Positions 20,968 through 63,190 are shown, counted from the stretch's first letter. The stretch: 64,000 bases of DNA from a virus (IMGVR_UViG_2681813215_000001:4521-68520), one strand, 5' to 3'. Made by a program: numbers and translations. The notes: generated by a model from the letters alone, not told the origin.

Positions 20968-21281
20968 TGCCGCACTCAAACCCTACCGACTGGATAGCAG
21001 GGGGAAGTGTCGCCGCGGACATCGTCGGATGCCTCACCGGTCTTGTCGCTGACCTGTCATGGCAAGACGAAGCAGCGTGCCGCGGACTCCCCACGGAGTG
21101 GTGGTTCCCAGATCAAGGCGCAAGCCGGGAATGTAAGCGGGCCAAGGAAATCTGCCACGGATGCCCAGTCAAACTCCAATGCCTCCAATTCGCCATAGAG
21201 GTACACGACCAACACGGTATCTACGGGGAGCTGTCATTGAAGGACAGGCGTAGGTGGAACCAGGAAAGGAAAGCGGGCTAG
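20967..21281 (+). CDS. whiB: Second WhiB family transcription factor
   Basis: WQDEAAC...WWFP...AKEICHGCPVKLQCL...GIYG. Confidence 0.9.
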   Translation: MPHSNPTDWIAGGSVAADIVGCLTGLVADLSWQDEAACRGLPTEWWFPDQGASRECKRAKEICHGCPVKLQCLQFAIEVHDQHGIYGELSLKDRRRWNQERKAG

Positions 21282-21322
21282 ACACCGCGACTTGTCCTGA
21301 AACGGAGGATAATTGAGGTATG
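21279..21322 (+). promoter_or_regulatory. TAGAC-box leaderless promoter element, copy 1
   Basis: TAGACACCGC-N19-GATAAT-TGAGGT-ATG. Confidence 0.75.
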
Positions 21323-21643
21323 GGCACATTACCTGATGCAGTACCACAGATGCCCGTATGTGGTGCTTGCGGCGGCGAGACTAGATCTGACGGCGAGCAC
21401 TTCTATTGCGAATACTGCCTACTTGGATTCGCGCCGATCACACTAATTGCATTCTTCCTTGATCCCAACGCCAAAACATGTGGGGCTCCATGTGACAACA
21501 GCTGGCACGGCGACCACAGAATCCGGCAAGGGTGGGGCTATGACTGTGGACCGTGTGGGCTCCCTGCCGGTCACGAATCGATGCATTGGACCAACTGCCA
21601 ACCGAAGCAAGTAGCGGCAATTCCCGGAGGTAGTGAGAGTTGA
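21320..21643 (+). CDS. Cys-rich hypothetical protein
   Basis: Several CxxC motifs; preceded by the TAGAC-box element. Confidence 0.7.
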   Translation: MGTLPDAVPQMPVCGACGGETRSDGEHFYCEYCLLGFAPITLIAFFLDPNAKTCGAPCDNSWHGDHRIRQGWGYDCGPCGLPAGHESMHWTNCQPKQVAAIPGGSES

Positions 21644-21930
21644 GTAAGTACAAGATGCCCGACCCACCTGCTGGCATGTGGTGGGAGGTCAAGTTTGACA
21701 AGCCGCTAGAGAAGACATATTTGATGGTCAAGCTACGCCGCAAGGCATGGGGCATCTTCACCAAGACGGTCGACTGGTCGTGTTATTCGCCGAGTGTCGA
21801 CGCGGAAATCAATGCATACCGTTCCGTATGGCTTGCGGAAGAGATCCTCAAAGGTAAAGGGGCGGAAGCGAGGCGGTTTAAGCGGTCAGATTTCGGACTC
21901 AATGGTTTGACGGGGTACCGCCGTGGCTGA
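21640..21930 (+). CDS. Hypothetical protein
   Basis: Coupled; PDPPAGMWWEV. Confidence 0.65.
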   Translation: MSKYKMPDPPAGMWWEVKFDKPLEKTYLMVKLRRKAWGIFTKTVDWSCYSPSVDAEINAYRSVWLAEEILKGKGAEARRFKRSDFGLNGLTGYRRG

Positions 21931-22210
21931 GTTGAGTGCTAAACCGCTAGTCGCATCCATGTGCACGCTGTGTTGCGCAGATCGACATGAGGCCCCAAGT
22001 GCTGGTTGTCCTGGCGCAAATGCCACCGGTCCCCAAAGGATCCTATGGAACTGGAATGCCAAGTACCGGAAATCTTCACGCACCGTCACGCTGTCAATCC
22101 CACGCGCGGCGATAACCCTGTACGACGCGGACATGAACAGGATTGGCACCGTAGCCGAGTACGAGGCAGTAACTGGCGTCAAGGTGATATTAGGGAGTGA
22201 TGCCCCGTGA
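21923..22210 (+). CDS. Hypothetical protein
   Basis: Overlapping operon gene. Confidence 0.55.
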   Translation: MAELSAKPLVASMCTLCCADRHEAPSAGCPGANATGPQRILWNWNAKYRKSSRTVTLSIPRAAITLYDADMNRIGTVAEYEAVTGVKVILGSDAP

Positions 22211-22464
22211 GTGCTGAACCGCTTATACCGCACTGGCGCCAATCGGGTTTTGGTGAGTGTGACAACTGTGGACATGGTGCCAGCGCTCATGACTACAACA
22301 TGGGCGCGTGTCTATCTGTCAATGAGGGACAAGCTGGAATGTATCAAGGCTACTGCGGCTGCGACCAGCTGGAGAATGCTGCGGCTTCTGCTAATCGCCG
22401 CCGTCTCGCCTGGGAACGCTATATGGCAGAGAACGATCCACCGTCGAACGGAGAAGCCTTGTGA
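22207..22464 (+). CDS. Cys/His-rich protein
   Basis: CDNCGHGASAH...C...YCGCDQL. Confidence 0.6.
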   Translation: MSAEPLIPHWRQSGFGECDNCGHGASAHDYNMGACLSVNEGQAGMYQGYCGCDQLENAAASANRRRLAWERYMAENDPPSNGEAL

Positions 22465-22655
22465 GCGACCGCAGCGGAATCATCCGGCATCCCGCCAACA
22501 TCCTCGGTGAACTACAAGTCATCGGACTCCATATGCACACCCTGTCGGTTCGGTTGGATGAGTTGAGGGATCAGTTGGACCAAGTGGCGCAGATCGGTTA
22601 CGAGATGTGGGGAAAGCCGCAGCCGCACGAAGACTTCCCGAAGAAGGGCGCCTGA
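22461..22655 (+). CDS. Hypothetical coiled-coil protein
   Basis: GTGA-coupled. Confidence 0.6.
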   Translation: MSDRSGIIRHPANILGELQVIGLHMHTLSVRLDELRDQLDQVAQIGYEMWGKPQPHEDFPKKGA

Positions 22656-23333
22656 ATGTCCGTCTCTGACAGCTTCTTTCTAGATAAGGGCTCACAACAC
22701 AAGCTCCGTGAGGAGTTGGCCAGCATCCCCCGCATGATCGGGGAGCTGTCCGTCACCCTCACCCGCCAGGCCCGCATCCAGAGGCCGGGGTTGAGTATGT
22801 CCCGACGACCCAAACCTGAATCTCAGGTCCCCATCCATATCGGCGCACACAACGCCGCCGACGTACTGCACAACTGCTTGGGCACGTGGGTGAGGCTGGT
22901 ATGTGAACAGCGAGCGATCGTGTGGGACAAGGGCAACGACATCATCACCTTGGCGAAGTGGCTGCGAGTCAACATGATCGCCTTAGCCCTCACTGAAGGT
23001 TCAGAAGAAGCCTACGAGGACATCAAAGCCGCTATCGATGAGTGCTGGCGACAGATAGACATCCCCGCAGACGACGACATAGTGATCGACCGAGGTCGAG
23101 TCCATGAAGCCAATAAGCACATCGTAACCGCCGACACCATCGAACCTATTGCCCGCCGAATAGGGGAGATGGGCAAGAAGCTGAACGCGCAGCGAGTGCA
23201 CTCACTGACCCGTGGTGGGCATTTACGCCCGGTCTCCAGTGACCCGGATACGGGTAAGAAGTTCTACCGCCTGGGGGATGTACTACACGCGCACAACAAC
23301 TGTGAGAAGCGGGACCGGAAGAAGGGTGCATGA
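22656..23333 (+). CDS. Putative late-transcription regulator with C-terminal wHTH
   Basis: Position at the end of the early region; RVHSLTRGGHL...KFYRLGDVL. Confidence 0.6.
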   Translation: MSVSDSFFLDKGSQHKLREELASIPRMIGELSVTLTRQARIQRPGLSMSRRPKPESQVPIHIGAHNAADVLHNCLGTWVRLVCEQRAIVWDKGNDIITLAKWLRVNMIALALTEGSEEAYEDIKAAIDECWRQIDIPADDDIVIDRGRVHEANKHIVTADTIEPIARRIGEMGKKLNAQRVHSLTRGGHLRPVSSDPDTGKKFYRLGDVLHAHNNCEKRDRKKGA

Positions 23334-23509
23334 TGAGCGACACATTGAATCGGCAGCTCAATCAAAAAGTCAAAGAGCTGCAGGATGATATAGAGGCGTG
23401 GGGTCGCAAGGCCGAGTGGGCGCTACTGCAGGACGATGTGGGCTGGTGGTACGACGTTCTTGAGGCTCTTGTAAAACGCGGTAAAAAGATGAAAGAGACG
23501 GGAATCTAG
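23330..23509 (+). CDS. Hypothetical protein
   Basis: ATGA-coupled. Confidence 0.5.
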   Translation: MMSDTLNRQLNQKVKELQDDIEAWGRKAEWALLQDDVGWWYDVLEALVKRGKKMKETGI

Positions 23510-23620
23510 ATGTGCCCGCCACGCTGCCGGGGATGTGTGCATGAACAACACGAGCATGAGGCTTGGTGGGGTAGATGCCTACATGCGGACTGCGATTGCG
23601 ATCAGTGGGAAGACCGCTAG
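23510..23620 (+). CDS. Cys/His-rich mini-protein
   Basis: MCPPRCRGCVHEQHEH...CLHADCDCDQW. Confidence 0.45.
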   Translation: MCPPRCRGCVHEQHEHEAWWGRCLHADCDCDQWEDR

Positions 23621-23727
23621 TTCCGGTGTGGCTCGATTGCGACACGCCGACCAGCTGATATACCCCTTAACCATCGTCAAGTAGTAAACTGCGCCTAGGC
23701 GCAACTCGCACCCCCGCATAGTCCCCT

Positions 23728-23758
23728 CCCCGTCCTCTCGTTAGGGGCGGGGTCTTTT
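23728..23758 (+). terminator. Intrinsic terminator-like hairpin plus U-tract
   Basis: CCCCGTCCT...AGGGGCGGGG-TCTTTT. Confidence 0.6.
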
Positions 23759-23775
23759 CATTCCCGGAGGTTCCC

Positions 23776-23922
23776 ATGCCTCTGTCTCGTGTCCGCTGCT
23801 GCATCCCCTGTGGCCGTATCCGCTACGCCCCCTGCTCTGCAGGGTGTCGAGTAGATCCCGAGAACGACCCAACAAGCTGGACAGAACAGGTGACCGTGCC
23901 CGCCGAGGCTGATCCGTCGTGA
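23776..23922 (+). CDS. Small Cys-rich protein
   Basis: GGAGG RBS; MPLSRVRCCIPCG. Confidence 0.55.
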   Translation: MPLSRVRCCIPCGRIRYAPCSAGCRVDPENDPTSWTEQVTVPAEADPS

Positions 23923-24086
23923 TTCTGTGCCGCATCGGCTGGCATCACTGGGAGAAGTGGCGCCTCAATAAGCGCTTCATCGACACCTCGTGGGACTGCG
24001 ATGTTCCCTCGGCGCAGTACAAGCGCTGCTGCATCCGCTGCGGTAAGCCGCAAACCGAGTCCATCCGCGACTTCTCCAAGGATTAG
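23919..24086 (+). CDS. Small Cys/His protein
   Basis: ILCRIGWHHW...KRCCIRCG; GTGA-coupled. Confidence 0.55.
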   Translation: MILCRIGWHHWEKWRLNKRFIDTSWDCDVPSAQYKRCCIRCGKPQTESIRDFSKD

Positions 24087-24094
24087 GTGCCGCC

Positions 24095-24391
24095 ATGCTC
24101 GACAGATTCTTCGCAGCACTAGCCGGCGCCATGGCCCCTCTACTCGTGGCCATGTGTGAGCGCATCGCGAACAGGAAGATCCCTGACGACACGGTGCCGA
24201 AGTTCATGGACGGCCTACTGGACATTGCCCGAGACGGCGTTGACCGCGCCGTCGGTGTGGTGCAGACGTCCGCCGACGGTATCGCCGGTAGCGCGGAAGC
24301 TGAACTAGGCCAGCTCGGTTCGGAGATCAGGGGAGTGGTCAAAGCGGCCAACCTCATCGATATTCTCGGCAGCCTGTTCGGGCGACGCTAG
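24095..24391 (+). CDS. Hypothetical protein
   Basis: Clean ORF; its stop TAG begins a TAGAC box. Confidence 0.7.
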   Translation: MLDRFFAALAGAMAPLLVAMCERIANRKIPDDTVPKFMDGLLDIARDGVDRAVGVVQTSADGIAGSAEAELGQLGSEIRGVVKAANLIDILGSLFGRR

Positions 24392-24433
24392 ACACCGCTG
24401 GTACCGGCCGTTTCGCGATAAGATTGGAGCATG
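24389..24433 (+). promoter_or_regulatory. TAGAC-box element, copy 2
   Basis: TAGACACCGC-N20-TAAGAT-TGGAGC-ATG. Confidence 0.7.
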
Positions 24434-24571
24434 AACCTCTTTGAGGCGCTGGAGCAGGTGCCTATCTGGCAGACGCTCCTAGCGATGCTGGTTCTCGTTA
24501 TCGTCGGTGACATCACTAGATTCGCCACGACCGCTCTCTATAACCGCTTCAGCCCCACAAGAAGGCGGTAA
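24431..24571 (+). CDS. 46-aa membrane protein
   Basis: WQTLLAMLVLVIVGDI hydrophobic helix; follows copy 2. Confidence 0.6.
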   Translation: MNLFEALEQVPIWQTLLAMLVLVIVGDITRFATTALYNRFSPTRRR

Positions 24572-24583
24572 CGGGGGCCTCAC

Positions 24584-24627
24584 TTGCCTCCGCGGACTCC
24601 CCGTTCTACTATCGAACACATGTTCGA
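24584..24627 (+). promoter_or_regulatory. SigA-type leaderless promoter overlapped by a LexA (SOS) box
   Basis: TTGCCT-N17-TACTAT-N7-ATG; TCGAAC-ACAT-GTTCGA at 24612-24627. Confidence 0.85.
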
Positions 24628-24865
24628 CAAGGTGTCATACCGTATCGAAGGGGATGGACCCGTCATAGCGGTACTCACCTACCAAAACCGGGAGTACCGG
24701 CACACCTCCCGAACCATGTGGCTGGGACACGAATACGGCATGCCGCAGGGCAGATTGCAGCTGTCGCCGCACATTTCGGTGAGTCTTCGCCGCATCAACG
24801 GAACCATAGAAGCCACCATCACCGATTCTAAGACTGGTGAAAGCTACACCCTCACACCTGAATAG
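24620..24865 (+). CDS. Putative SOS-regulated hypothetical protein
   Basis: MFDKVSYRIEGDGP; ATG lies inside the SOS box. Confidence 0.75.
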   Translation: MFDKVSYRIEGDGPVIAVLTYQNREYRHTSRTMWLGHEYGMPQGRLQLSPHISVSLRRINGTIEATITDSKTGESYTLTPE

Positions 24866-24906
24866 ACACCGCGACTTGCGCTGCGCCTCGGTAAAATTGA
24901 GGGATG
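24863..24906 (+). promoter_or_regulatory. TAGAC-box element, copy 3
   Basis: TAGACACCGC-N19-TAAAAT-TGAGGG-ATG. Confidence 0.75.
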
Positions 24907-25158
24907 AACGAACTGATGGGCGACCCAACTATGAGTGGCGACCCGGCCGTGGAGGCTGCACATCGGTCATTTCACCCCAAATACAATTACTCATGGGAAG
25001 ACAAATCAACAGGCGTCGCCTCTGCCCGTGAAGCTTTGAGGCCAGTACGGGAATGGTGCGACAAGTGGCTCAACGAACTCTCTATTCGCGGCCTAGACGA
25101 GGCGCTGGACGAGTTGGCGCCGCTGATCTTCACGGCAGAGGAACTGACCGATGACTGA
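24904..25158 (+). CDS. Hypothetical protein, paralog of 18196-18423
   Basis: DPAVEAA...ALDELAPLIFTAEEL. Confidence 0.7.
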   Translation: MNELMGDPTMSGDPAVEAAHRSFHPKYNYSWEDKSTGVASAREALRPVREWCDKWLNELSIRGLDEALDELAPLIFTAEELTDD

Positions 25159-25411
25159 ACCATCCCAAGCCCATATAGACCGGGCACGTGAACTCGGCCT
25201 CTCTTTCGATCCTTCTGATACATCGGATGAAGAGTTAAGTCGTGCTATCGCAACGTATGAACGGGTTTACATCGAGGCGATGACCGAGAATTCTGGTAGG
25301 GACACTGATACTCCTACCGAGCGTCGCAAGATGCTGGGCTGCTGGACACAGCGCGATGAAGACGAGGCCGAGGCGGCAGCTGGACGGCGGCGGATGTTCG
25401 GCTCCCATTAA
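25151..25411 (+). CDS. Hypothetical protein
   Basis: Overlapping operon gene. Confidence 0.6.
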   Translation: MTEPSQAHIDRARELGLSFDPSDTSDEELSRAIATYERVYIEAMTENSGRDTDTPTERRKMLGCWTQRDEDEAEAAAGRRRMFGSH

Positions 25412-25423
25412 ATCCCACCCGCC

Positions 25424-25467
25424 TAGACACCGCTAATCCCGTTGAAACACGGGATAATTGAGGTATG
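25424..25467 (+). promoter_or_regulatory. TAGAC-box element, copy 4
   Basis: TAGACACCGC-N19-GATAAT-TGAGGT-ATG. Confidence 0.75.
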
Positions 25468-25668
25468 ACGGTAGCTGAGTTGATTGATGAGCTAGGGAAG
25501 TATCCGGGCGACACACCCGTGTTACGGCCTGGACACCCGGATGGTGGCGGCTACGACGACCTGGACTTCGTTCGAGTCACACGCTACAACCCAAACGGCT
25601 ACCCGTGCTCATATGCCGGGTATTACGACTGGGCAGAGGATGGTATAGAAGCCGTCTTGCTCACCTGA
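25465..25668 (+). CDS. Conserved small phage protein (MTVAELIDELGKYPGDTPV type)
   Basis: Common phage N-terminal motif. Confidence 0.7.
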   Translation: MTVAELIDELGKYPGDTPVLRPGHPDGGGYDDLDFVRVTRYNPNGYPCSYAGYYDWAEDGIEAVLLT

Positions 25669-25693
25669 CGCTGAATCCCTTTGGGAGGCAATC

Positions 25694-25858
25694 ATGCTTG
25701 ATGGTCAACCATTGGATCCAGTTGAAGCCGCGCGGCTGTATGACCAACGATTGAAAGCCATGTGCACTCCAGAAGAGTGGGAAGTGTACGACCGCCGCCT
25801 ACATCCCGAGAGCTACCCTCCGGAGCTCCCATGGTGGCGAAAGCTGTTCAGGCTCTAG
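25694..25858 (+). CDS. Hypothetical protein
   Basis: GGAGG RBS; ends PWWRKLFRL. Confidence 0.55.
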   Translation: MLDGQPLDPVEAARLYDQRLKAMCTPEEWEVYDRRLHPESYPPELPWWRKLFRL

Positions 25859-25860
25859 CC

Positions 25861-26028
25861 ATGGCCCTGACCGCTAACCAGCTCCGCATTTTAGAAGCGT
25901 TGCAGCGGTTACGTATAGCCCGTACTGAGGGTGATCTCCATGAAGAGTTGGTTTGTACTCGCCGCATGGACTACCTGCTAGACCGTGAGCCTACGGGCAT
26001 AGGTTCCGTTTCGCCGATCGCGCCATAG
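25861..26028 (+). CDS. Hypothetical protein
   Basis: MALTANQLRILEALQRL; overlaps the 3' end of the reverse DUF732 gene. Confidence 0.5.
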   Translation: MALTANQLRILEALQRLRIARTEGDLHEELVCTRRMDYLLDREPTGIGSVSPIAP

Positions 26029-26272
26029 CCAACAGATTGGCTGGTGTCGCGTTCGGATAGTTGGAGTGCGAGGCGACTTGTTCCGGGGTTTCCCCGTTTC
26101 GTAAGTCATTACACATGCCGTTACCGGCAGCCAGTAGGAACGGCCGGGACTGCCACATCACTTGAAAACCCTGCCCGGACAGTTCGTCCAGGTAGGCGTC
26201 ATCGTCCGCGTACGCCGCGGGCGCGAAAACAATGCTGGCCGCTACGGCGGCTGCAGCTGCGATCTTGATCAT
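25991..26272 (-). CDS. Secreted DUF732-like protein (counter-oriented)
   Basis: Signal peptide PAAYA-DDDAYLDEL...GNGMCNDL...AKRNLCP; TACGAT 6 nt before ATG. Confidence 0.8.
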   Translation of the reverse strand: MIKIAAAAAVAASIVFAPAAYADDDAYLDELSGQGFQVMWQSRPFLLAAGNGMCNDLRNGETPEQVASHSNYPNATPANLLAMARSAKRNLCP

Positions 26273-26324
26273 TGGCGGATCGTAGACCTCCACCCCGACG
26301 GGTACAGGCGAAACGGGAGATCAG

Positions 26325-26402
26325 ATGGCCGTGCAGCACTGCGAGTACTGCGGCCGCCGCCTCCGGTACGACTGCTGCCCGCACTGTGAAGAGGGGCAGT
26401 AG
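26325..26402 (+). CDS. 25-aa Zn-ribbon mini-protein
   Basis: CEYCG...CCPHC; stop overlaps the next start. Confidence 0.45.
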   Translation: MAVQHCEYCGRRLRYDCCPHCEEGQ

Positions 26403-27664: not shown

Positions 27665-27670
27665 GGAGTT

Positions 27671-29429: not shown

Positions 29430-29845
29430 TGGCAGCCTTCGTGTACTTCACTGTGGCCGACACCTATCAGGCCATCGTCTCTGATGGGTCCGATGAGGGT
29501 AGCGAGCCGGATCTGAAGATGATTTCCGGCACTGTCACTTTCACACCTTCGGTGAAGGAAGTGCTGGCCACCATCTCCGATATCCCCACCACGGTGCGTT
29601 TGGAGCCGATCATTGGCCGCATCGAGGAAGACGGTGTGCTGAAGACTCTCGATTCCACGCCGGGTGTGAAGCTGCTCGCCAACACCGAAGCCATCGGGCC
29701 CCTGCCCGAGCTGACGTATCGGGTGGACTTCACGAACGTGGTCTACAACCGCAAAACCAACCAGCGCATCGAGCCGTTCCGGTTCGCCGCCGCCACAAGC
29801 GCCACCACACTGCGCTTGTCTTCGGTTGAGCGCCTGCCTTTATGA
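29429..29845 (+). CDS. Beta-rich protein resembling the N-terminal domain of mycobacteriophage minor structural proteins
   Basis: DEGSEPDL..ISGTVTFTPSV...GVKLLAN...LTYRVDF. Confidence 0.65.
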   Translation: MAAFVYFTVADTYQAIVSDGSDEGSEPDLKMISGTVTFTPSVKEVLATISDIPTTVRLEPIIGRIEEDGVLKTLDSTPGVKLLANTEAIGPLPELTYRVDFTNVVYNRKTNQRIEPFRFAAATSATTLRLSSVERLPL

Positions 29846-31050: not shown

Positions 31051-31216
31051 AGCACGGATGCCCGTTATTGGCTGCAGGTGTGGAGACTGCACGCAGCTTG
31101 ATGTAGTCCGTGACTGGTGGTGGTGGAACATCTTCCAGCGCTGGGTCACATTCCGATACGAGCAGCGCAATGGGCGTACACAGACCAAATATCCGTGGGG
31201 TTTCTACTGCCAATGA
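31034..31216 (+). CDS. Small hypothetical protein
   Basis: GCRCGDC; ORF track. Confidence 0.45.
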   Translation: MPRALRARMPVIGCRCGDCTQLDVVRDWWWWNIFQRWVTFRYEQRNGRTQTKYPWGFYCQ

Positions 31217-31229
31217 TCCAGTACTGCTG

Positions 31230-31583
31230 ATGCCGCGAGCCCCAAAAGTCTGCACCTTCAAGGACTGCACCACCCTTGTCTACAACGGACACCGCTGCCC
31301 TACACACACCACTCATGGCTGGGGTAAGGGCAACCCACGCACCAAGACACCAGAGCACGAAGCATGGCGTAAAGCCGTGCTAGACCGCGACCACTACCGC
31401 TGCCGCATCCAATACCCAGGCTGCACAGGCAGAGCAGGCATAGCTGATCACATCACCGCCACCAAATTCGGCGGAGCACCGTACGACATCACCAACGGCC
31501 AAGCCGCATGCCGCCCCTGCCACGACAAGAAGAGCGCAGACGAAGGCAATACTGCACAGGGCCATCAGGTTAGACCCCGCTGA
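31230..31583 (+). CDS. Packaging-associated HNH endonuclease
   Basis: MPRAPKVC...VLDRDHYRC...ADHI...NGQAACRPCHDKKS; upstream of terS. Confidence 0.88.
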   Translation: MPRAPKVCTFKDCTTLVYNGHRCPTHTTHGWGKGNPRTKTPEHEAWRKAVLDRDHYRCRIQYPGCTGRAGIADHITATKFGGAPYDITNGQAACRPCHDKKSADEGNTAQGHQVRPR

Positions 31584-31616
31584 TAGTCACCGTCCGCTAG
31601 TAAGATCAGAAACATG
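31571..31616 (+). promoter_or_regulatory. TAGAC-box element, copy 5
   Basis: TAGACCCCGC-N20-TAAGAT-N7-ATG. Confidence 0.7.
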
Positions 31617-31778
31617 CAATGGCCCGTCCTAATCACCTGCTGGGTACTGATACTCAGCCTATGGATAGCCGACACTGCCCCGGTTAGGCGCTTCTACACC
31701 AAGACGCGCCCAGGCAAGTTCCTCACCAACACCTTCAACTGGATGCGCAAACTGTTCGTCAGGCTCGGCGTCAACTAG
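31614..31778 (+). CDS. 54-aa membrane protein
   Basis: MQWPVLITCWVLILSLWIA followed by a basic tail; not in the ORF track. Confidence 0.6.
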   Translation: MQWPVLITCWVLILSLWIADTAPVRRFYTKTRPGKFLTNTFNWMRKLFVRLGVN

Positions 31779-31807
31779 CCCCCAGGGGGCACCCCGTACC
31801 CCCATCG

Positions 31808-54853: not shown

Positions 54854-54868
54854 CGAAAGGGCACTACC

Positions 54869-55300: not shown

Positions 55301-55302
55301 CA

Positions 55303-55344: not shown

Positions 55345-55360
55345 GCCCGAAGGAGGTCGC

Positions 55361-55486: not shown

Positions 55487-55536
55487 TGCGTAAACGCATT
55501 GAACAGTGGTTGGCCGCGATCTGGTGGTCGTACTGA
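55486..55536 (+). CDS. 16-aa micro-ORF MRKRIEQWLAAIWWSY
   Basis: TGATG overlaps at both ends. Confidence 0.45.
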   Translation: MRKRIEQWLAAIWWSY

Positions 55537-57250: not shown

Positions 57251-58215
57251 TCCTTACCCTCGGTTCCCATGGGGATGTAGTCGCGAGGTGGCAGCGGGTC
57301 ATGGTGGCCCGCTACGCCTCCTACGCGAAAGCTGCAGACGGCGGCCCGCTGAAGGTTGATTCGTACTTCGGGTACGACGACCAAGATGTCCAGAAGGAAT
57401 ACCAGCGCCGCACCAACCAACCCCAGAACGGGATTGTGTCTAGCGACGACCTGATCAGGCTCGGCGTCACCCCAGTCCTATTCACAGTCCAGGGCACGGG
57501 TGTTGACATGTGGACCGGCTACCCAGCCGACACCGCCAGGGCATGCCTCGATCTGTGTCATTGGCAGCCCATCGGGAACTATCCCGCTGATCCGTTTCCG
57601 ATGTGGCGGTCCGTGCTGCAAGGGATTGCCGAATTACGTCTGCAGTTGCGCGATTACAACAACCGATACCCCGGATGCCGGATCTGGCTGGCTGGGTACA
57701 GCCAGGGGGCGATCGTCACATCTTGGGTGTACAAGCACGACATCGTGGACCCTAATGGCATGCTGCACGATCTGCTGCCTCAGGTGAAAAAGGCTGTCAC
57801 ATGGGGAAACCCTATGAGAGAACTTCACAAGGCGAACGGAAACGTCCGAGCCGGCTGGGTAGTGCCGGATGGACAGGGCATTCTGTATGACCGGCTGCAG
57901 GGCACCCCCGACTACTGGCTCGACTTCGCACACGGAGCCAATAGCGATTGGGGTCGGGACCTCTACACCGACACCGAAGTTGGGCCACGCGGCGACAACG
58001 AATCGGCGATCTGCGACATCATCATGCAGCAGACGCTATGGAGCGGACCGATCTCCCTCGCCAAGCGATTCGCGCATCTCGTAGCGGATCCGATAGAGGG
58101 TCTCCCGGCGGTTTTCGAGTCGATCTATGACGCGGGAATGTTCTTCGGCAGCGGCACGGCGCCGCACGTGAACTACGACCCGCAACCCGCTATCGACTAT
58201 CTGCGTGCCGCATAG
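57247..58215 (+). CDS. lysB: Lysin B (PG-binding domain plus cutinase-like esterase)
   Basis: GSHGDVVARWQR N-terminus; AGYSQGA; WGNPMRE; PHVNY. Confidence 0.92.
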   Translation: MILTLGSHGDVVARWQRVMVARYASYAKAADGGPLKVDSYFGYDDQDVQKEYQRRTNQPQNGIVSSDDLIRLGVTPVLFTVQGTGVDMWTGYPADTARACLDLCHWQPIGNYPADPFPMWRSVLQGIAELRLQLRDYNNRYPGCRIWLAGYSQGAIVTSWVYKHDIVDPNGMLHDLLPQVKKAVTWGNPMRELHKANGNVRAGWVVPDGQGILYDRLQGTPDYWLDFAHGANSDWGRDLYTDTEVGPRGDNESAICDIIMQQTLWSGPISLAKRFAHLVADPIEGLPAVFESIYDAGMFFGSGTAPHVNYDPQPAIDYLRAA

Positions 58216-58339
58216 CCATTGCGGCTAAAGAACGGCATTGTCACTGCTGGACAGTAGGATTGAAATCGGGACCGGGCGCGCTACCAACGCAACCCGATCC
58301 CTAACCCACCAATCTGAGCAAGCAGAAGGAGGGCTAGCA

Positions 58340-58861
58340 GTGAATGCTACCCGCGAACAATGGCGTCCTGTAGTCGGCTGGGAAAACCTGTACGAGGTCA
58401 GCGACCAGGGGCGAGTTCGATCACTTGACCGCATGGTTCCGGTTGGGCGATATGGCAAGCCCACCTTCCGAGCGGGGAGGGTCCTTAAACCTAGCCCCGG
58501 AGCCACCGAATACCCACGGGTAACGCTCATTGATGCGGCTAGCGGGTTGAAGCGTTTTGCCAACATCCACAGCCTGGTCCTAGAGGCATTCATTGGGCCG
58601 CGACCTGACGGTATGGAGTGCTGCCACAACGACGGCGATAGGTCCAATGCCAGATTGTCAAACCTGCGGTGGGATACACGCTCGGAGAACACATTAGATG
58701 CAGTCAGGCAGCGCACAAACCATAACGCCAAGAAGCAAACCTGCCCGAATGGCCACCTGTATGACGGCGTCTATCGCGGCAAGCGGGGCGCAGCGCGCTA
58801 TTGCAAGCGTTGCACGAAGGCGCGCGCTCAACGCCGCAGTCGCGAACTCCGTTCCGCTTAA
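58340..58861 (+). CDS. NUMOD4-HNH homing endonuclease
   Basis: WRPVVGWENLYEVSDQGRVRS; IHSLVLEAF...CCHNDGD..N; GAAGGAGG RBS. Confidence 0.92.
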   Translation: MNATREQWRPVVGWENLYEVSDQGRVRSLDRMVPVGRYGKPTFRAGRVLKPSPGATEYPRVTLIDAASGLKRFANIHSLVLEAFIGPRPDGMECCHNDGDRSNARLSNLRWDTRSENTLDAVRQRTNHNAKKQTCPNGHLYDGVYRGKRGAARYCKRCTKARAQRRSRELRSA

Positions 58862-58942
58862 CTGAAGTTACTGCTGCCCGCCGACCTCACTTAACAACTG
58901 AATAGAGCCCTCGAAGCGCCCCATGAAAGGCGGTTCAAACAA

Positions 58943-59164
58943 ATGTCCATCCGTGAAATGTTTGCGGAGCGGTCAAAGCCGCAGCCGCGCGTATGCACCA
59001 CCTGTGAGTGGTTCTCTGGACAGTCGGACGATGAGCAGGCCGCGGCGAGGGAATGGGTCGAGGCGGGTTTCTCAGTCGAGGAGCTTTGGCGTGGACTAAA
59101 GAAGCTGGGGTACCCACTGGGCGCGATCTCATTGCGCCGTCACGTCAGGGAGTGCCTGGGGTGA
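58943..59164 (+). CDS. Small Zn/HTH-like protein coupled to the phosphoesterase
   Basis: CTTCEW...SLRRHVREC. Confidence 0.7.
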   Translation: MSIREMFAERSKPQPRVCTTCEWFSGQSDDEQAAAREWVEAGFSVEELWRGLKKLGYPLGAISLRRHVRECLG

Positions 59165-60294
59165 CAATCCGAGACAATCTCAACCGGATGCTGGAAGCTC
59201 CGACGGCCGAGGAGAAGCGGTACACACCGGAGACCACGTTCGATGGTTCTGCGGGGCATATCCAGACCGGAACGATGAAAGCCGCCGATCCGGTGGACTA
59301 CACGGATCTACTCAAGCAGTTCGGGTATGACCCGGATGAGGTTCAGATCGTCGGTTCGGTGCGTACGTCGCGGTGGCAGCAGCGTGAGGATGGGGAGTGG
59401 CTGGTTGCGTACCGGTTCAACATCGCGCCCCGACAGACAATCTCCACCCTCGATCTGGAAGCACTCGTCAAGAAGGCCAAGACTCACAAACCAGTTGGTG
59501 CTAAAGGCCATTGGCTCGTATTTCAAGCAGCAGATCTACAGCTGGGCAAAAGATCACGTGACGGCTCAACCGAGCAGATAGTCGAAAACTACCTGGATAG
59601 TTTGCAACGAAGTATCGAACAGTATCGAGTACTGAAGCGGTACGGCATTGAGGGTATCCAGGTTTCCATGCCGGGGGACTGCATTGAAGGCGTGGTGAGC
59701 CAATCGGGGCGCAACCTGTGGTTGACCCAAGAGACGATCACGGAGCAGACCCGCATCTTGCGCAGGTTGATGGTCGCGACCGTAGACGCGTTCCGGCCGC
59801 TAGTCGATCAGGTCTATCTAGATGTTGTGAATGGGAACCATGATCAAAGTCAGCGCCAGCAGAACACCTACCCAGGAGATGGGTGGGCCACCGAGTGTGC
59901 GATAGCGGTACATGATGCGCTACAGCTGAATCCCGCAGCCTATGGTCACGTCTCTGTGCGGACCCCTGACCGATGGTCCAACTCCATGACCGTGCCAGTC
60001 GGGTCCAGTGTTGTGACAGTCACCCACGGTGATGCATGGCGTCGCGGTAAGGGAATGCTGTGGTGGTCGGGCCAAACCTTCACGTGTCAGCCGGCGGGCG
60101 CGGCCCAGGTATTGCAGCACGGTCACTGGCACGGCTTGGATATTGAGAAGGATGGCGACAGAACCCGCCTCTGCTGCCCGGCACTTGATTGTGGGTCGGA
60201 TTGGTACCGGAACCTATCGGGATCTGAATCGCGCCCTGGCGCGCTGACCTACCTGCTCGATCACGGCCAGTTTTCCCACCTTTCGGTTGTGTAG
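59161..60294 (+). CDS. Calcineurin-like metallophosphoesterase
   Basis: ADLQLGK, PGDCIEG, NGNHD, THGD, HGHWH motifs in order. Confidence 0.85.
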   Translation: MTIRDNLNRMLEAPTAEEKRYTPETTFDGSAGHIQTGTMKAADPVDYTDLLKQFGYDPDEVQIVGSVRTSRWQQREDGEWLVAYRFNIAPRQTISTLDLEALVKKAKTHKPVGAKGHWLVFQAADLQLGKRSRDGSTEQIVENYLDSLQRSIEQYRVLKRYGIEGIQVSMPGDCIEGVVSQSGRNLWLTQETITEQTRILRRLMVATVDAFRPLVDQVYLDVVNGNHDQSQRQQNTYPGDGWATECAIAVHDALQLNPAAYGHVSVRTPDRWSNSMTVPVGSSVVTVTHGDAWRRGKGMLWWSGQTFTCQPAGAAQVLQHGHWHGLDIEKDGDRTRLCCPALDCGSDWYRNLSGSESRPGALTYLLDHGQFSHLSVV

Positions 60295-60302
60295 GAGATG
60301 CC

Positions 60303-60530
60303 ATGAGCGACAACCATCCCGACGAACTCATACAGCAGTACGTCGATGCTGTTGATAGCGAACCGGAATGGGGTGTATCCGGCTTTGTGCTGATGGTCGG
60401 ATTCGAGCGCGTCGATTCAGACGGCACACTCCTACATGAGTACAAGGTGTACACGCGGCACAACCAACCGCCATGGACCACACACGGACTGATAGCAGAC
60501 AGTGTGGAACACCTAGAGCGAACAGAGTGA
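60303..60530 (+). CDS. Hypothetical protein
   Basis: AGGAG RBS; often accompanies such phosphoesterases. Confidence 0.7.
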   Translation: MSDNHPDELIQQYVDAVDSEPEWGVSGFVLMVGFERVDSDGTLLHEYKVYTRHNQPPWTTHGLIADSVEHLERTE

Positions 60531-60535
60531 TTGCC

Positions 60536-60724
60536 TCAGCTGTACTCAGACGGACTCTTACCCATGGTGTCCCACGGGAAGTACAAGACAGCGTCGGTTC
60601 CCCATGCCTCGGCAATCTGGGCGGCGCGCTCCATGTTGCGCAGCGTGATCCAGTCCATCACGTCCCGCTCGCGGAACCGGCCATTTTCATCCGGTTTCGG
60701 AAAACCTGTTAGGTCTTCTTCCAT
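60536..60724 (-). CDS. Counter-oriented hypothetical protein (moron-like)
   Basis: Has its own TAGAC-box promoter. Confidence 0.65.
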   Translation of the reverse strand: MEEDLTGFPKPDENGRFRERDVMDWITLRNMERAAQIAEAWGTDAVLYFPWDTMGKSPSEYS

Positions 60725-60765
60725 CTCTCAATTTTACGGCGCTACAGCAGTATCCACGGGGTCTA
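60722..60765 (-). promoter_or_regulatory. TAGAC-box element, copy 6
   Basis: TAGACCCCGT-N19-TAAAAT-TGAGAG-ATG on the minus strand. Confidence 0.75.
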
Positions 60766-60775
60766 GATAGTGAAA

Positions 60776-60808
60776 GGCCCCCGCGTGAGAGAGCTGTACG
60801 CGGGGGCC
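60776..60808. terminator. GC-rich hairpin
   Basis: GGCCCCCGCGT...ACGCGGGGGCC 11-bp IR. Confidence 0.5.
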
Positions 60809-60905
60809 GTCCTGCCCACGATTGATTGCCGCTTCTAACTTTACTCCGCTTCTCCGACATCACCGGGGTTTATCCGTCCTACCCATCTTCAAGTTAGGGG
60901 TCATC

Positions 60906-61241
60906 ATGGCTTTGATTGATGTGAACAATCCTCCCCAGCAGGGCGTCATATACCTGAGCAAGGGCTGCAATGTTGCGTTGACTTTCCGGTGCTTCGACGG
61001 GGATGAAAACCCGATTGATTTGAGTGGCGGCCTGGAGATCGAGATCGATCAGGGAACCGCTGATGCTGTACACATCGAGGGCGACATATCAGAGGACTCG
61101 TTTTCTGCATCGGTCCTGCTTCCATCGGAGGTGTCGGACACTGCCAAGAGTGGATGGCAGTGGCGGGTGAAGCTTTTGCCCTCCAAGCAGCCTCTAATAG
61201 TGGGTGTTTTCGAGCGGCGGGACGGCAAGGTCAATGTCTAA
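60906..61241 (+). CDS. Beta-rich protein (BppU N-terminal/LtfC-like)
   Basis: IYLSKGCNVALTFRC...PIDLSG...WQWRVKL. Confidence 0.65.
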   Translation: MALIDVNNPPQQGVIYLSKGCNVALTFRCFDGDENPIDLSGGLEIEIDQGTADAVHIEGDISEDSFSASVLLPSEVSDTAKSGWQWRVKLLPSKQPLIVGVFERRDGKVNV

Positions 61242-61536
61242 CATCACCGTTGAAGTTGAATCCGATGTAGTTAACGTGACGATGGATGATGATCCCACCG
61301 TTTTCACGGTTCAGATCGGCGGCCCCACCGGAACTAGTGGCTCTGGGGGGTATTACCGTCATGAACAGGCTTCAGCGTCTGACGAATGGGTGATCGAACA
61401 CGGTTTATCCCAGCCGATCTCGGCATGCCACATCGTGTGCGACGGCGCCCAGGTATTAGCGCCTTGGGTTGAGGACGAGGGTTCCGTAACGATCAGTTTC
61501 GGTAAGCCCTACACGGGCTACGCGGTTCTGTCCTAG
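61234..61536 (+). CDS. Small virion-appendage-like protein
   Basis: YYRHEQASASDEWVIEHGL motif. Confidence 0.65.
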   Translation: MSNITVEVESDVVNVTMDDDPTVFTVQIGGPTGTSGSGGYYRHEQASASDEWVIEHGLSQPISACHIVCDGAQVLAPWVEDEGSVTISFGKPYTGYAVLS

Positions 61537-61547
61537 AGAGGATTGCC

Positions 61548-62006
61548 ATGGCTGACATAGTTTTTGGGAACAATGTAGACGCGCAGGGCTTCAAGATAAC
61601 GAACGCGGCCGACGGGGTCGCAGCGGGGGATCTCGTCACCAAACGACAACTGGACTACGCAATCCTGCTCGCCACCCTGGCTTTTAAGGGAACCGCGATC
61701 AAGAACCCGGTGCGTGTTGTCGCCACCACCCCGATAACGCTCTCAGGTCTGCAGACCGTCTCAGGTGTCGCACTGTCCGCATACGATCGCGTACTGGTGA
61801 ACGGTCAGGCCGACCCGATCCAAAACGGCTTCTACGACGCCGCGTTTGGGGCATGGTCGCGTTCCTTCGACGCAGCAGCAGGCGACATACTTTCCTCGGG
61901 GACGATCGTCGTGGCCACCGAGAGCACAGAAAAGCTGTGGACGATCGCCACCACTTCAATCATCGGAACTAGCGCCCAGAACTGGGCACCACTCCTAGGT
62001 TCCTAG
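61548..62006 (+). CDS. Head/tail fibre-like protein
   Basis: KITNAADGVAAGDLVTKRQL; VRVVATTPITLSGLQTVSGVALSAYDRVLVNGQ. Confidence 0.7.
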   Translation: MADIVFGNNVDAQGFKITNAADGVAAGDLVTKRQLDYAILLATLAFKGTAIKNPVRVVATTPITLSGLQTVSGVALSAYDRVLVNGQADPIQNGFYDAAFGAWSRSFDAAAGDILSSGTIVVATESTEKLWTIATTSIIGTSAQNWAPLLGS

Positions 62007-62029
62007 CGCCACGGAACACCTGGAATGAT

Positions 62030-62341
62030 TCAGCGCCGTCGAGCTTCTTCGGCGGGCGGGTAGCCGTCGTAGAAAGAACCCTGGGGCCATATGGCGCTTT
62101 CAAGCGACTTGATTGACTCAGCCGTTGTCGCGTCAAGTTCGCCGATAATCCCGCCTGTTTCCATCGGTGGCATCTCGCGGTAATTGGTCTGCCATGGACT
62201 TTCTCGCCACATCAGATCCAAAAGCTCTTGAGAGCCACCCGTCAGTGTGTCGCCACGCTTAGCATTCTGCCGCAGCCACAGGTATGCCGCCTCCGTGGTT
62301 CCATGATCAGCCAAGAGTGCCACCCATGAGTATTCAGCCAT
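62030..62341 (-). CDS. Counter-oriented hypothetical protein (moron-like)
   Basis: Has its own TAGAC-box promoter. Confidence 0.7.
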   Translation of the reverse strand: MAEYSWVALLADHGTTEAAYLWLRQNAKRGDTLTGGSQELLDLMWRESPWQTNYREMPPMETGGIIGELDATTAESIKSLESAIWPQGSFYDGYPPAEEARRR

Positions 62342-62382
62342 GCCTTAATTTTACGGCGTTACAGCAGAAGTAGCGGTGTCTA
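62339..62382 (-). promoter_or_regulatory. TAGAC-box element, copy 7
   Basis: TAGACACCGC-N19-TAAAAT-TAAGGC-ATG on the minus strand. Confidence 0.78.
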
Positions 62383-62386
62383 GCGG

Positions 62387-62482
62387 GTGGTACGGATGCG
62401 CCAACTGTAATGGCAGGACCGTACCGAAAGTGGTACGGATGCGCCCACGTCAGTGTCAGAACCGTACCAAAAAGTGGTACGG
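62387..62482. repeat. 43-44 bp periodic palindromic repeat array
   Basis: GTGGTACGG at 62387, 62430, 62474; ACCGTACC at 62418, 62461; two different 15-nt spacers. Confidence 0.85.
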
Positions 62483-62508
62483 GGTAGCGATTTCACCGGG
62501 AGGGTCCC

Positions 62509-62751
62509 ATGGCTTTACATCCATCCGATTGGGCTTGGATCACTATGGCTGCTGGGATCGTCGCCTACGAGATCGCCTGCCCGCCGGGGGAACTACTCAG
62601 TGACGCTACGACGAGGTACGGGCAGTCCCACATGTTCCTCAGCTCCGCGGTCATCGGGGTAGTCGCAGTACACCTACTGCGCACCACCGGACTCTTGCGG
62701 TTCATCCCCGAACAGCTCGACCTCATCCATCTGTTGGCTTCACTGAAATGA
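62509..62751 (+). CDS. Small membrane protein
   Basis: DWAWITMAAGIVAYEIACPPGELLS. Confidence 0.75.
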   Translation: MALHPSDWAWITMAAGIVAYEIACPPGELLSDATTRYGQSHMFLSSAVIGVVAVHLLRTTGLLRFIPEQLDLIHLLASLK

Positions 62752-62812
62752 GAGGACACCCCATGTGCAGATACGGGTTTGAAAAGAGCGTCCTGTCGAC
62801 GGGTACTCCACG

Positions 62813-63148
62813 GTGAATGTCGCTGAGGTAGTCGGCTTGATCGCTGGCTCATCGCTCCTGTCCTCGCTCGGTGTAGCCCTCCTATCCCGCAAGAGCAACA
62901 CCTTCTCCAAATTCACCGAGGCCTACGAAGCCCTAGCTGATCGGGTTACCAAGCTCGAAGAGAAGCTCGTCGCCGTAGAAGCCGCGTACTCCAATGAGCA
63001 GGAGCAGCACGGAAACACACGCGGTCTGCTGAGAATCGCCCTGCGCTACATACGTGACGTCCTCGCTTGGGGAGTAGGGGACCGCGTACACCCACTACCT
63101 GAACCGCCAGCAGAGATATTCCGGCACCTAACGCAGCCCGAAACTTAG
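62813..63148 (+). CDS. Membrane-anchored coiled-coil protein
   Basis: N-terminal TM, YEALADRVTKLEE coil, PLPEPP. Confidence 0.75.
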   Translation: MNVAEVVGLIAGSSLLSSLGVALLSRKSNTFSKFTEAYEALADRVTKLEEKLVAVEAAYSNEQEQHGNTRGLLRIALRYIRDVLAWGVGDRVHPLPEPPAEIFRHLTQPET

Positions 63149-63190
63149 ACCTCGCCGTTGTCCATGGTCACCAATAGAATTGGTTTTATG
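63146..63190 (+). promoter_or_regulatory. TAGAC-box element, copy 8
   Basis: TAGACCTCGC-N19-TAGAAT-N7-ATG; begins with the upstream stop codon. Confidence 0.7.

Follow-up and report, generated by a model that had tools for sequence, protein, structure and literature searches.

Eight copies of a TAGAC box, each closely followed by an ATG, lie in a 64,000-nucleotide stretch of DNA (hereafter the window) from a MabA-cluster Mycobacterium abscessus prophage, which raises the question of what these sites do for the genes behind them. An earlier note on this DNA had seen in them leaderless promoters of accessory genes, either read by a dedicated phage activator or acting as a portable insertion socket of the integron type. 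We asked whether transcription starts at these sites, whether genes are exchanged there and what might read the box.

A 44–45 bp module precedes eight small genes

Exact matches to TAGACMYCGY number eight in the window, compared with a mean of 0.66 in shuffled sequence (maximum 3; 0/100 shuffles reached eight), and no stray box was found outside the modules across the entire 68.5-kb record. The coordinates and strands given for the eight copies in the earlier note are right (Table 1), and the layout it described recurs in every one of them: the box is followed by 19–20 nt, a -10-like hexamer (TAAAAT in three copies, GATAAT and TAAGAT in two each, TAGAAT in one), 6–7 nt and an ATG, which lies 41–43 nt from the box and opens a small ORF, as the note had also claimed, here of 46–107 aa. 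In four of the eight copies, again in agreement with the note, the TAG of the box terminates the preceding ORF (ORF ends 21281, 24391, 24865 and 63148). Beyond what had been noticed before, the whole 44–45 bp is conserved, the module is widespread in relatives, and transcription start site (TSS) data for it had already been published.

The box forms the 5′ end of this module and occupies positions -41 to -32, followed by the -10 hexamer at -12 to -7, TGAGG and the ATG at +1; further conserved positions are T at -28, TG at -22/-21, C at -17, G at -13 and, for TGAGG, -6 to -2. Among 64 distinct module variants, the box, the -10 and TGAGG are invariant and the spacer is variable. A fixed 44-nt weight matrix, trained on other genomes, gave the five 44-nt copies of the window 53–67 bits and everything else at most 8 bits. 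The copy at 31571 is the most divergent, lacking TGAGG and having its box within the 3′-terminal part of an HNH gene; with no homologue among the modules with a mapped TSS, it is also the least certain of the eight. All eight hexamers fit the leaderless -10 pattern (T)ANNNT ending 6–7 nt before the start codon (TANNNT in 6/8, GATAAT in 2/8). A consensus scan for a -35 hexamer 16–18 bp upstream called none of the modules, and TAGACA stands 23 nt from the -10, which we agree is too distant for a SigA -35. A -35 hexamer is optional in mycobacteria.

Table 1. Modules, the genes that they head and other features of the window
Feature	Position	Strand	Remarks
Phage tyrosine integrase	566-1801		Only integrase among ORFs examined
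Zinc-finger protein, putative DNA-binding, 62 aa (PF24623)	19792..19980	+	Candidate box reader
WhiB1 (PF02467)	19958..20299	+	Upstream of module 1
WhiB2 (PF02467)	20904..21281	+	Candidate box reader; ends in module 1 TAG
Module 1	21279..21322	+	Box, 19-nt spacer, GATAAT, TGAGGT, ATG; 64.7 bits; TAG = WhiB2 stop
Cys-rich 107-aa ORF (phrog_36479)	21320..21643	+	First gene of module-1 unit
wHTH-type protein	22656..23333	+	Within module-1 unit
Intrinsic-terminator-like hairpin + T-run	23728..23752	+	Closes module-1-driven unit
Module 2	24389..24433	+	45 nt, TAAGAT; relatives' homology stops at box 3′ edge (24400)
46-aa ORF	24431..24571	+	One hydrophobic helix; downstream of module 2
Module 3	24863..24906	+	TAAAAT; relatives' homology stops exactly at ATG
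84-aa ORF (phrog_780)	24904..25158	+	Downstream of module 3
Module 4	25424..25467	+	GATAAT; perfect 7-bp inverted repeat in spacer, overlapping -10; relatives' homology stops at ATG
67-aa ORF	25465..25668	+	Downstream of module 4
HNH gene	31110-31583	+	3′ end contains module 5 box
Module 5	31571..31616	+	Divergent, 46 nt, TAAGAT, no TGAGG
54-aa ORF	31614..31778	+	N-terminal hydrophobic helix; downstream of module 5
62-aa ORF	60536..60724	-	Downstream of module 7
Module 7 (earlier note's numbering)	60722..60765	-	TAAAAT
103-aa ORF	62030..62341	-	Downstream of module 8
Module 8	62339..62382	-	TAAAAT, TAAGGC
Module 6	63146..63190	+	45 nt, TAGAAT within palindrome ACCAAT-AGA-ATTGGT
80-aa ORF	63188..63430	+	Downstream of module 6
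Terminator-like G+C-rich hairpin + TTTTTT	63472..63527	.	Read from sequence; ends module-6 gene

The module is confined to MabA prophages

Among 50,697 phage records searched, the module was confined to 17 MabA1, MabA2 and MabA3 records, with 6–8 copies per genome in the four MabA records examined. A search of 185,579 representative bacterial and archaeal genomes yielded 11 scattered chance matches and otherwise no complete module. The motif search of related prophages and host genomes that the earlier note had suggested thus places the module in MabA relatives, with no detection in the host-genome searches, and in the searchable literature we came upon no account of the motif. MabA is reported to be the most prevalent M. 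abscessus prophage cluster and to be resident in the species' major clade of closely related subsp. abscessus strains (PMC8092301).

Transcription starts on the ATG in an uninduced lysogen

The TSS evidence comes from published dRNA-seq of ATCC 19977, the carrier of a homologous MabA1 prophage. The ATGs of the eight modules of prophiGD17-2 map to eight ATCC 19977 coordinates, and Dataset S1 (PMC4974804) has a TSS on the A of the ATG at all eight. Seven of these TSSs are assigned to genes, with a 5′-UTR of 0, and the eighth is entered as tertiary under MAB_1724c, at the ATG coordinate; the upstream strings printed there are the modules. TSS mapping, a check that had been proposed together with the leaderless promoter claim, thus supports that claim in the homologous prophage. 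The TSS heights at these modules range from 165 to 1888, and module promoter strength tracks the -10 hexamer, with heights of 733–1888 at TAAAAT modules and 165–508 at GATAAT modules. In the window, module 1 corresponds in position to the ATCC 19977 module whose TSS is 1773427, modules 3 and 4 are 88.6% and 95.5% identical to those with a TSS height of 1808 and a TSS at 1779496, respectively, and module 6 is of the same TAGAAT-class variant as the one with a TSS at 1815646. Judged by their sequence, the window's own copies are presumably active as promoters too.

The RPKM was 46–94 for MAB_1766–1770 versus 0.9 for the gene directly upstream (Dataset S2, PMC4974804). In the same dataset, MAB_1766–1770 carry ribosome footprints in the uninduced lysogen, MAB_1767–1770 are represented by 1–4 peptides each, early and late lytic genes have RPKM values of about 0–4 and the annotated WhiB gene has 2.1. 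Since transcription starts on the ATG and the genes are expressed in the uninduced lysogen, the modules are lysogenically active leaderless promoters, and in ATCC 19977 they drive much of the prophage's lysogenic transcription, next to that of the attL-proximal genes, the repressor, the toxin-antitoxin pair and MAB_1773c. MAB_1766–1771 are up-regulated in a sheet of Dataset S3 that is most likely the artificial-sputum one.

Homology between relatives breaks at the modules

Along the window, homology to relatives stops at 21324, 24400, 24906 and 25467 and starts at 60721, where that of prophiGD43A-1 sets in at the ATG of module 7. Ten of the 164 unique homology endpoints fall inside modules, compared with 1.1 expected over the whole window and, for the variable regions alone, 2.4 (Poisson estimate, p ~2e-4). 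As homology breaks inside modules or at the ATG about 4–9 times more often than by chance, the modules are joints of cassette exchange. The breakpoints are scattered across the module length, as expected for homologous exchange, and those at the ATG may in part be due to selection of recombinants that express the gene, and not to crossovers occurring preferentially there. Counted at modules alone, the module instances sort into 34 clusters by their upstream flank and 55 by their downstream flank, and a single upstream context can have as many as six downstream partners; modules travel with the upstream or with the downstream flank. Many IMG/VR loci are near-identical, so the effective sample sizes are smaller than these raw counts. 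The 54-aa ORF of module 5 is missing from the aligned relatives GD17 and GD43, where homology picks up at 31779, and copies 5 and 8 have no matching position in the relatives aligned. The insertion socket proposed in the earlier note is supported as a recombination joint, with breakpoints at the box edge or the ATG, but not in its integron-style form, as neither attC-like 3′ sites nor, among the ORFs examined, a dedicated cassette integrase is present.

A probable promoter and recombination joint in one

We consider it very probable that the modules are leaderless promoters, active in the lysogen, for small accessory genes and at the same time joints for homologous recombination. Each copy would by itself constitute a SigA/SigB-type promoter from which a leaderless mRNA is made: RNA polymerase, with the -10 hexamer at -12 to -7, would start at the A of the ATG, so that the downstream ORF would need no ribosome-binding site. 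The TAGAC(A/C)CCGC box at -41 to -32 would serve as an upstream recognition element. Its distance exceeds that of a -35 hexamer by about half a helical turn, and a class-II or sigma-region-4-bound factor would be expected to contact the DNA at this position. In the lysogen, these promoters would be on, with the moron genes expressed and the lytic genes silent. The module also brings a stop for the gene before it and the start codon of the gene after it and, with some 44 bp common to many loci and MabA prophages, could thereby act as a joint at which downstream genes are replaced, we infer by homologous recombination.

Candidate readers of the box

A WhiB protein may read the box, judging from gene content: both WhiBs are common to every module-bearing genome examined. 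We tentatively entertain a phage regulon, in which the box would bind the MabA-encoded WhiB2 or WhiB1 (on region 4 of sigma-A) or the 62-aa zinc-finger protein, and the promoters would depend on a low lysogenic level of that factor. Such a regulon fits the box itself, which is invariant and stands at a fixed distance from the -10 across MabA1–A3 while the spacer diverges, the position of module 1 immediately behind the zinc-finger and WhiB genes, and the lack of the complete module in the bacterial and archaeal genomes beyond chance matches. The -41 to -37 geometry, just upstream of the -35 position, also fits WhiB7-type activation, where the activator site abuts the -35 region. The records with the zinc-finger protein (at least 95% identical) and with close orthologues of WhiB2 are exactly the 17 that bear the module, a correlation that is, however, confounded by the shared ancestry of the MabA early region. 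Moreover, the annotated WhiB has an RPKM of about 2 in the lysogen, whereas the TSSs of the box promoters rank with the strongest of the prophage, and WhiB2 and the zinc-finger gene are without annotation in ATCC 19977.

The other activator named in the earlier note, the wHTH-type protein at 22656, was rejected: it has no detectable homologue in the module-bearing MabA2 and MabA3 (8 and 6 modules), so it cannot be the universal reader. Homologues with about 56% identity occur in M. smegmatis phages, e.g., Charlie; no module was found in M. smegmatis phage records.

Somewhat doubtful is the alternative that the host alone reads the box, whether with its RNA polymerase holoenzyme or with one of its transcription factors; the phage would then have borrowed the element from a promoter of its host. 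In lysogeny the promoters work with most phage regulators off, and a strong host promoter upstream of MAB_2162 (TSS 2175950, height 6200) carries TAGACCCCGC at -41 to -32, a 19-nt spacer and TAGCGT; this is, however, a lone host match at that position, with a chance probability estimated at about 0.1, and no further host TSS with the box was found in the part of Dataset S1 searched. MAB_2162, annotated as a putative AAA-family ATPase and which we take to be mpa, is up-regulated together with MAB_1766–1771 in the probable artificial-sputum sheet, but the box-less repressor and toxin-antitoxin pair also rise in sputum. The -10 alone may also suffice without a contribution of the box, as is usual in mycobacteria.

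It seems rather improbable that the modules form a private MabA class of long-spacer leaderless promoters, read via a phage sigma-A adaptor (WhiB2 and/or the 62-aa zinc-finger protein) that keeps accessory genes on in lysogeny, with cassettes exchanged by an Erf-type recombinase through the 44-bp homology patch. An Erf-type recombinase is annotated in relatives of the window prophage, and if this reading were true, the system would be a homologous-recombination analogue of the integron.

Implications

Because the modules drive lysogenic genes, they mark which phage genes the bacterium actually expresses, and several of the genes downstream of modules appear to rise in artificial CF sputum. The module gives a one-line rule for spotting lysogenically expressed morons in hundreds of clinical genomes, and leaderless start codons of small genes can be corrected with it. 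It also offers graded, compact natural promoters for M. abscessus genetics, and a defined system in which to study the action of a box 23 nt from the -10 and to ask whether phage mosaicism is channelled by short promoters held in common.

Comparison with known systems

Like the SAS and ESAS of Cluster K (PMC3203893), the modules are cluster-specific, asymmetric and oriented, lie directly before the ATGs of different families, of non-structural genes only, in some cases contain the stop codon of the preceding gene and were seldom or never detected in host genomes. Genes are also replaced at them, but it is very unlikely that they are SAS-like translation-initiation signals or attC-like integron recombination sites: with the TSS on the ATG, the mRNA that the module serves does not contain it, GAGG is just 1–2 nt from the ATG, there is neither a cassette integrase among the ORFs examined nor an attC-like repeat on the 3′ side, and breakpoints are scattered over the module. 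The 13-bp SAS (GGGATAGGAGCCC) lies 3–7 bp before the start codon, within the mRNA, has AGGAG at the ribosome-binding-site position and is proposed to be translational (PMC3203893), whereas the module, unrelated in sequence, is transcriptional, lies upstream of the TSS and has its -10 hexamer at that place. Even less credible, and largely refuted, is a role as operators or stoperator-like sites to which the immunity repressor binds for silencing or activation: Cluster A stoperators (contrasted with SAS in PMC3203893) are likewise short, asymmetric, many per genome, in one orientation relative to transcription and placed in short intergenic gaps overlapping stop codons, but they bind the repressor and silence, whereas the modules head promoters active in the lysogen and are conserved across phages with unrelated repressors (a 253-aa MmyB-like XRE protein in the window, 146 aa in prophiGD17-2 and 437 aa in prophiGD43A-1), and no box lies in the repressor/cro region.

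Integron cassettes share with the modules a promoter-proximal site where diverse small genes exchange, but among the ORFs and sequence examined here there is no intI, attI or attC and no 3′ repeat, each cassette has its own promoter, and the exchange looks homologous and not site-specific. Ordinary mycobacterial leaderless promoters have the same -10 at -12 to -7, the TSS on the A of the ATG and no Shine-Dalgarno sequence; to our knowledge, they have no conserved upstream element, and the modules differ from them in the invariant 10-bp box at -41 to -32 and the conserved TGAGG discriminator.

Juhala and Hendrix (2000) reportedly described morons as additional genes that carry a promoter and a terminator of their own and are expressed from the prophage. 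The module genes, like the morons of temperate phages, have their own promoter, active in the prophage (by TSS, RPKM, footprints and peptides in the ATCC 19977 lysogen), are present in some close relatives and absent or replaced in others, and are expressed in lysogeny beside silent lytic genes. Terminator-like hairpins follow the module-1 unit, which extends from the 107-aa ORF through the wHTH gene to 23728, and the module-6 gene, where the hairpin possibly also ends a convergent DUF732 gene; the same arrangement is seen behind the corresponding module-headed gene 113 at the right end of prophiGD17-2. There is none between the tandem modules 2–4. Unlike other morons, several module genes stand in tandem without intervening terminators, with the junction precisely at the ATG, and 6–8 of them per genome share one 44-bp leaderless promoter with an invariant box.

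An Eight-Copy Module in a MabA-Type Prophage

The record is a 68,520-bp virus, of which the window is bases 4521-68520, and it shares about 93% identity across the shared parts with MabA-cluster Mycobacterium abscessus prophages such as prophiGD17-2 and prophiGD43A-1. The genes run from integrase, repressor and early genes through two WhiB genes, small genes and glycosyltransferases to the structural genes, lysis and the right arm. An exact scan with TAGACMYCGY found eight matches in the window (shuffle mean 0.66, maximum 3), which reproduced every position and strand listed in the earlier note (21279, 24389, 24863, 25424, 31571 and 63146 on the plus strand; 60765 and 62382 on the minus strand). 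At all eight boxes, 19-20 nt separate the box from a -10-like hexamer, which is followed after 6-7 nt by an ATG opening an ORF of 46-107 aa. In four of the eight copies, as had been noticed before, the upstream ORF ends with the TAG of the box, and no solitary box without the module was found in the whole 68.5-kb record. A weight matrix of fixed 44-nt length, trained solely on other genomes, gave the five 44-nt copies 53-67 bits and the rest of the sequence at most 8 bits; the remaining three copies, at 45-46 nt, are longer than the matrix. In summary, the box and its module are a real finding.

The most divergent copy is that at 31571, whose box lies inside the 3′ end of an HNH gene, and TTGAAC-type variants of the box occur in the window only at chance-level frequency. 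Two of the headed genes encode small proteins that each have one hydrophobic helix, and searches of Pfam, PHROGs and PADLOC assigned no function to the headed proteins. Terminator-like hairpins end the unit headed by the copy at 21279 and the gene headed by that at 63146.

Several other features of the prophage were observed. Record bases 1-4838, at the left end, hold a 1193-aa ORF without a Pfam match, then a DUF7674 protein and a 203-aa ORF, with GC going from 64% to 50%; this stretch may be a cargo cassette beside the attachment site. The leftward, integrase-proximal region encodes (3003-3764, minus strand) an XRE-HTH protein of 253 aa that has an MmyB-like ligand-binding domain. Its size is unrelated to that of the repressors of prophiGD17-2 and prophiGD43A-1, and a leaderless-type promoter precedes its gene (TACTAT, 7 nt upstream of the ATG at 3737). 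The two WhiB genes, adjacent in these relatives, are separated in the window by an HNH endonuclease ORF (20299-20967; NUMOD4 and HNH_3) that looks like a homing-endonuclease insertion. Between the modules at 24389 and 24863, an 81-aa gene (phrog_37605) has its own TACTAT leaderless-type promoter, and its ATG (24620) is spanned by a perfect palindrome, TCGAAC-ACAT-GTTCGA (24612-24627), which presumably fits the mycobacterial LexA-box consensus. Immediately upstream of the module at 62382, positions 62387-62482 carry two copies of GGTACGGATGCGCC and two of a CCGTACC...GGTACGG hairpin unit, flanked on one side by the divergent gene that the module heads and on the other by a DUF7427 gene, whose conservation is 98.75% in every MabA genome compared.

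Transcription Starts at the Module ATG in ATCC 19977

M. abscessus ATCC 19977 carries a homologous MabA1 prophage, and its transcription start sites (TSSs) in log phase have been mapped by dRNA-seq (Dataset S1 of Miranda-CasoLuengo et al. 2016, PMC4974804). The prophiGD17-2 sequence matches this prophage at every module checked, and its eight module ATGs all hit listed TSSs at a constant offset; moreover, the sequences that the TSS table prints upstream of these sites are those of the modules. A TSS is listed at each of the eight module ATG positions (see table), and the 5′-UTR is 0 at the seven assigned to annotated genes (PMC4974804). These are eight of about 30 prophage TSSs and include the strongest, bar one near attL, with TAAAAT modules stronger than GATAAT modules.

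Module elements in the consensus, and module TSSs and expression in ATCC 19977 (element positions relative to A of the ATG = +1)
Feature	Position	Strand	Value
Box	-41 to -32		conserved across variants
Hexamer (G/T)A(T/A/G)AAT	-12 to -7		conserved across variants
TGAGG	-6 to -2		conserved across variants
Module ATG/TSS	1756936	-	height 497
Module ATG/TSS	1773427		height 165.5
Module ATG/TSS	1778029		height 1887.5
Module ATG/TSS	1778637		height 1808
Module ATG/TSS	1779185		height 508
Module ATG/TSS	1779496		height 266
Module ATG/TSS	1814774	-	height 733.5
Module ATG/TSS	1815646		height 736
MAB_1765, just upstream of a module			RPKM 0.9
MAB_1766-1770			RPKM 46-94; ribosome footprints 20-47; 1-4 peptides each for MAB_1767-1770
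MAB_1757-1761			RPKM 13-16
MAB_1812c			RPKM 36
MAB_1815			RPKM 9
Early lytic genes			RPKM about 0-4
Annotated WhiB MAB_1756			RPKM 2.1
Structural genes			RPKM about 0

Together with the expression downstream (RNA-seq RPKM, ribosome footprints and peptides in Dataset S2, PMC4974804), the position of the TSS on the ATG indicates that the modules are leaderless-mRNA promoters active in the uninduced lysogen. Hence, the leaderless promoter proposed in the earlier note is backed by published data, obtained independently on a homologous prophage. Spontaneous induction as the source of the module-gene signal is excluded because the lytic genes are silent. MAB_1766, 1767, 1769, 1770 and 1771 are up-regulated (log2 1.2-3.5) in a sheet of Dataset S3 (PMC4974804) that is most likely artificial sputum, and the same list contains the repressor and the toxin gene MAB_1762 of the toxin-antitoxin pair, neither of which has the box. 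Dedrick et al. 2021 (PMC8092301) noted MabA1 lysogenic expression only for the toxin-antitoxin pair and make no mention of the motif.

At the right end of prophiGD17-2 (29549-29797), gene 113, the last to be headed by a module, is followed by a strong terminator and then, at attR, by the 5′ half of a tRNA-Met gene (anticodon CAT). The idea that the last module serves as phage promoter of the host tRNA-Met, which MabA1 rebuilds at attR, was rejected, since the terminator stands between gene 113 and the tRNA 5′ half; this implies that the tRNA uses another phage promoter, in the approximately 150 bp between.

Consensus and Distribution of the Module

A pattern scan of IMG/VR found 114 loci with the module, the multi-copy ones being mostly contigs of about 60 kb with isolate-type identifiers. 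The 139 module instances collapse to 64 distinct variants, nearly always 44 or 45 nt long. Counting only positions not forced by the instance filter, C -35, C -32, T -28, T -22, G -21, C -17, G -13, A -9/-8 and GAGG are near-invariant, and other spacer positions vary freely. In the GATAAT subfamily (window 25424-25467 and related loci), the spacer contains an inverted repeat of 5-7 bp, perfect in the window copy, which is centred on TGAAAC, overlaps the -10 and has co-varying arms (CCCGT/ACGGG, CCGGT/GCCGG, TCGCC/GGCGG). A spacer hairpin as a general feature of the module was rejected, the strong co-varying repeat being found in this subfamily only; over the 64 variants the mean z was -0.56. 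RPKM in ATCC 19977 goes from 81 to 12 across one module of this subfamily with the spacer repeat.

When two 44-nt modules were compared by BLAST with 50,697 phage records, only 17 matched, all of them M. abscessus prophages or phages that belong to MabA1, MabA2 or MabA3. There are eight copies each in prophiGD17-2, prophiGD43A-1 and prophiGD02-2 (MabA2), and six in prophiGD91-2 (MabA3), where two further, otherwise typical modules (19444 and 30983) have TTGAAC(A/C)CCGC in place of TAGAC(A/C)CCGC, a natural variant of the box similar to a -35 hexamer. The head genes annotated in MabA2 and MabA3 are another set (capsid maturation protease, capsid decoration protein), and the structural ORFs of the window have few clear matches there. 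As the structural genes differ, the module is part of the early/lysogeny region that these prophages have in common. Across 185,579 species of bacteria and archaea, each represented by one genome, a scan gave only 11 scattered single matches, none mycobacterial, although the ATCC 19977 prophage may be masked in this set.

Gene Swaps at the Module

Against prophiGD17-2 and prophiGD43A-1, homology crosses the upstream gene, enters the module and ends at 21324, 24400, 24906 and 25467, while at a minus-strand module it starts at 60721; each limit is either an ATG or a box's 3′ edge. Compared with all retrieved loci, 10 of the 164 collapsed endpoints fell inside the 420 nt of modules (expected 1.1); for the variable regions only (116 endpoints, 20.5 kb) the expectation is 2.4 (Poisson p ~2e-4 by our estimate). 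At nine of these ten endpoints the upstream side is kept and the downstream gene replaced.

Clustering the flanks of 134 instances gave 34 clusters for the upstream side and 55 for the downstream side, which occur in 65 combinations; a single upstream context is paired with up to six downstream partners, and 10 downstream genes were found in two contexts. In 19 of the 34 upstream contexts, the box TAG terminates an open frame that is 40 codons or longer. Mean module identity is 0.85 when only the upstream flank is shared, 0.90 (0.975 over the last 15 nt) when only the downstream gene is shared and 0.69 when neither is, which points to crossovers both within the module and at each of its edges; some variants look chimeric. 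The insertion socket put forward in the earlier note thus holds as a recombination joint, with homology ending at modules, but not in its integron form, as there is no integron-type recombinase among the ORFs examined and no 3′ site. Homologous recombination across the 44 bp that the copies share would be the simplest mechanism. Relatives carry an annotated Erf-family recombinase.

Candidate Readers of the Box

All five genomes compared share a 62-aa zinc-finger protein (PF24623) and two WhiB proteins, whose genes lie just upstream of the module at 21279. The zinc-finger protein is present in exactly the 17 module-bearing records, a correlation within one lineage.

A host promoter also shares the box: that of MAB_2162 in ATCC 19977, with a TSS at 2175950 of height 6200 (Dataset S1, PMC4974804). 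It carries TAGACCCCGC at exactly -41 to -32, followed by a 19-nt spacer and TAGCGT. The gene, which we take to be probably mpa, is annotated as a putative AAA-family ATPase. We estimate the chance probability of a single host match at that position at about 0.1, and the MAB_2162 box may be due to chance or may hint at a host factor that reads the box.

The wHTH protein encoded at 22656, proposed earlier as a dedicated activator, is excluded as a universal reader by the lack of a detectable homologue in MabA2 or MabA3; M. smegmatis phages, Charlie among them, have homologues of about 56% identity, and the 50,697 records searched showed no module in any M. smegmatis phage. The small HTH protein at 24620 was rejected for the same lack of detectable homologues in MabA2 and MabA3. 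The immunity repressor was also rejected, since the phages that bear the module carry unrelated repressors; the immunity region of the record contains no box.

Relation to Known Systems

Searches of the literature with the box sequence and the MAB gene names found no description of the module. We regard it as a variant of the moron promoters and of the cluster-specific repeats of mycobacteriophages.
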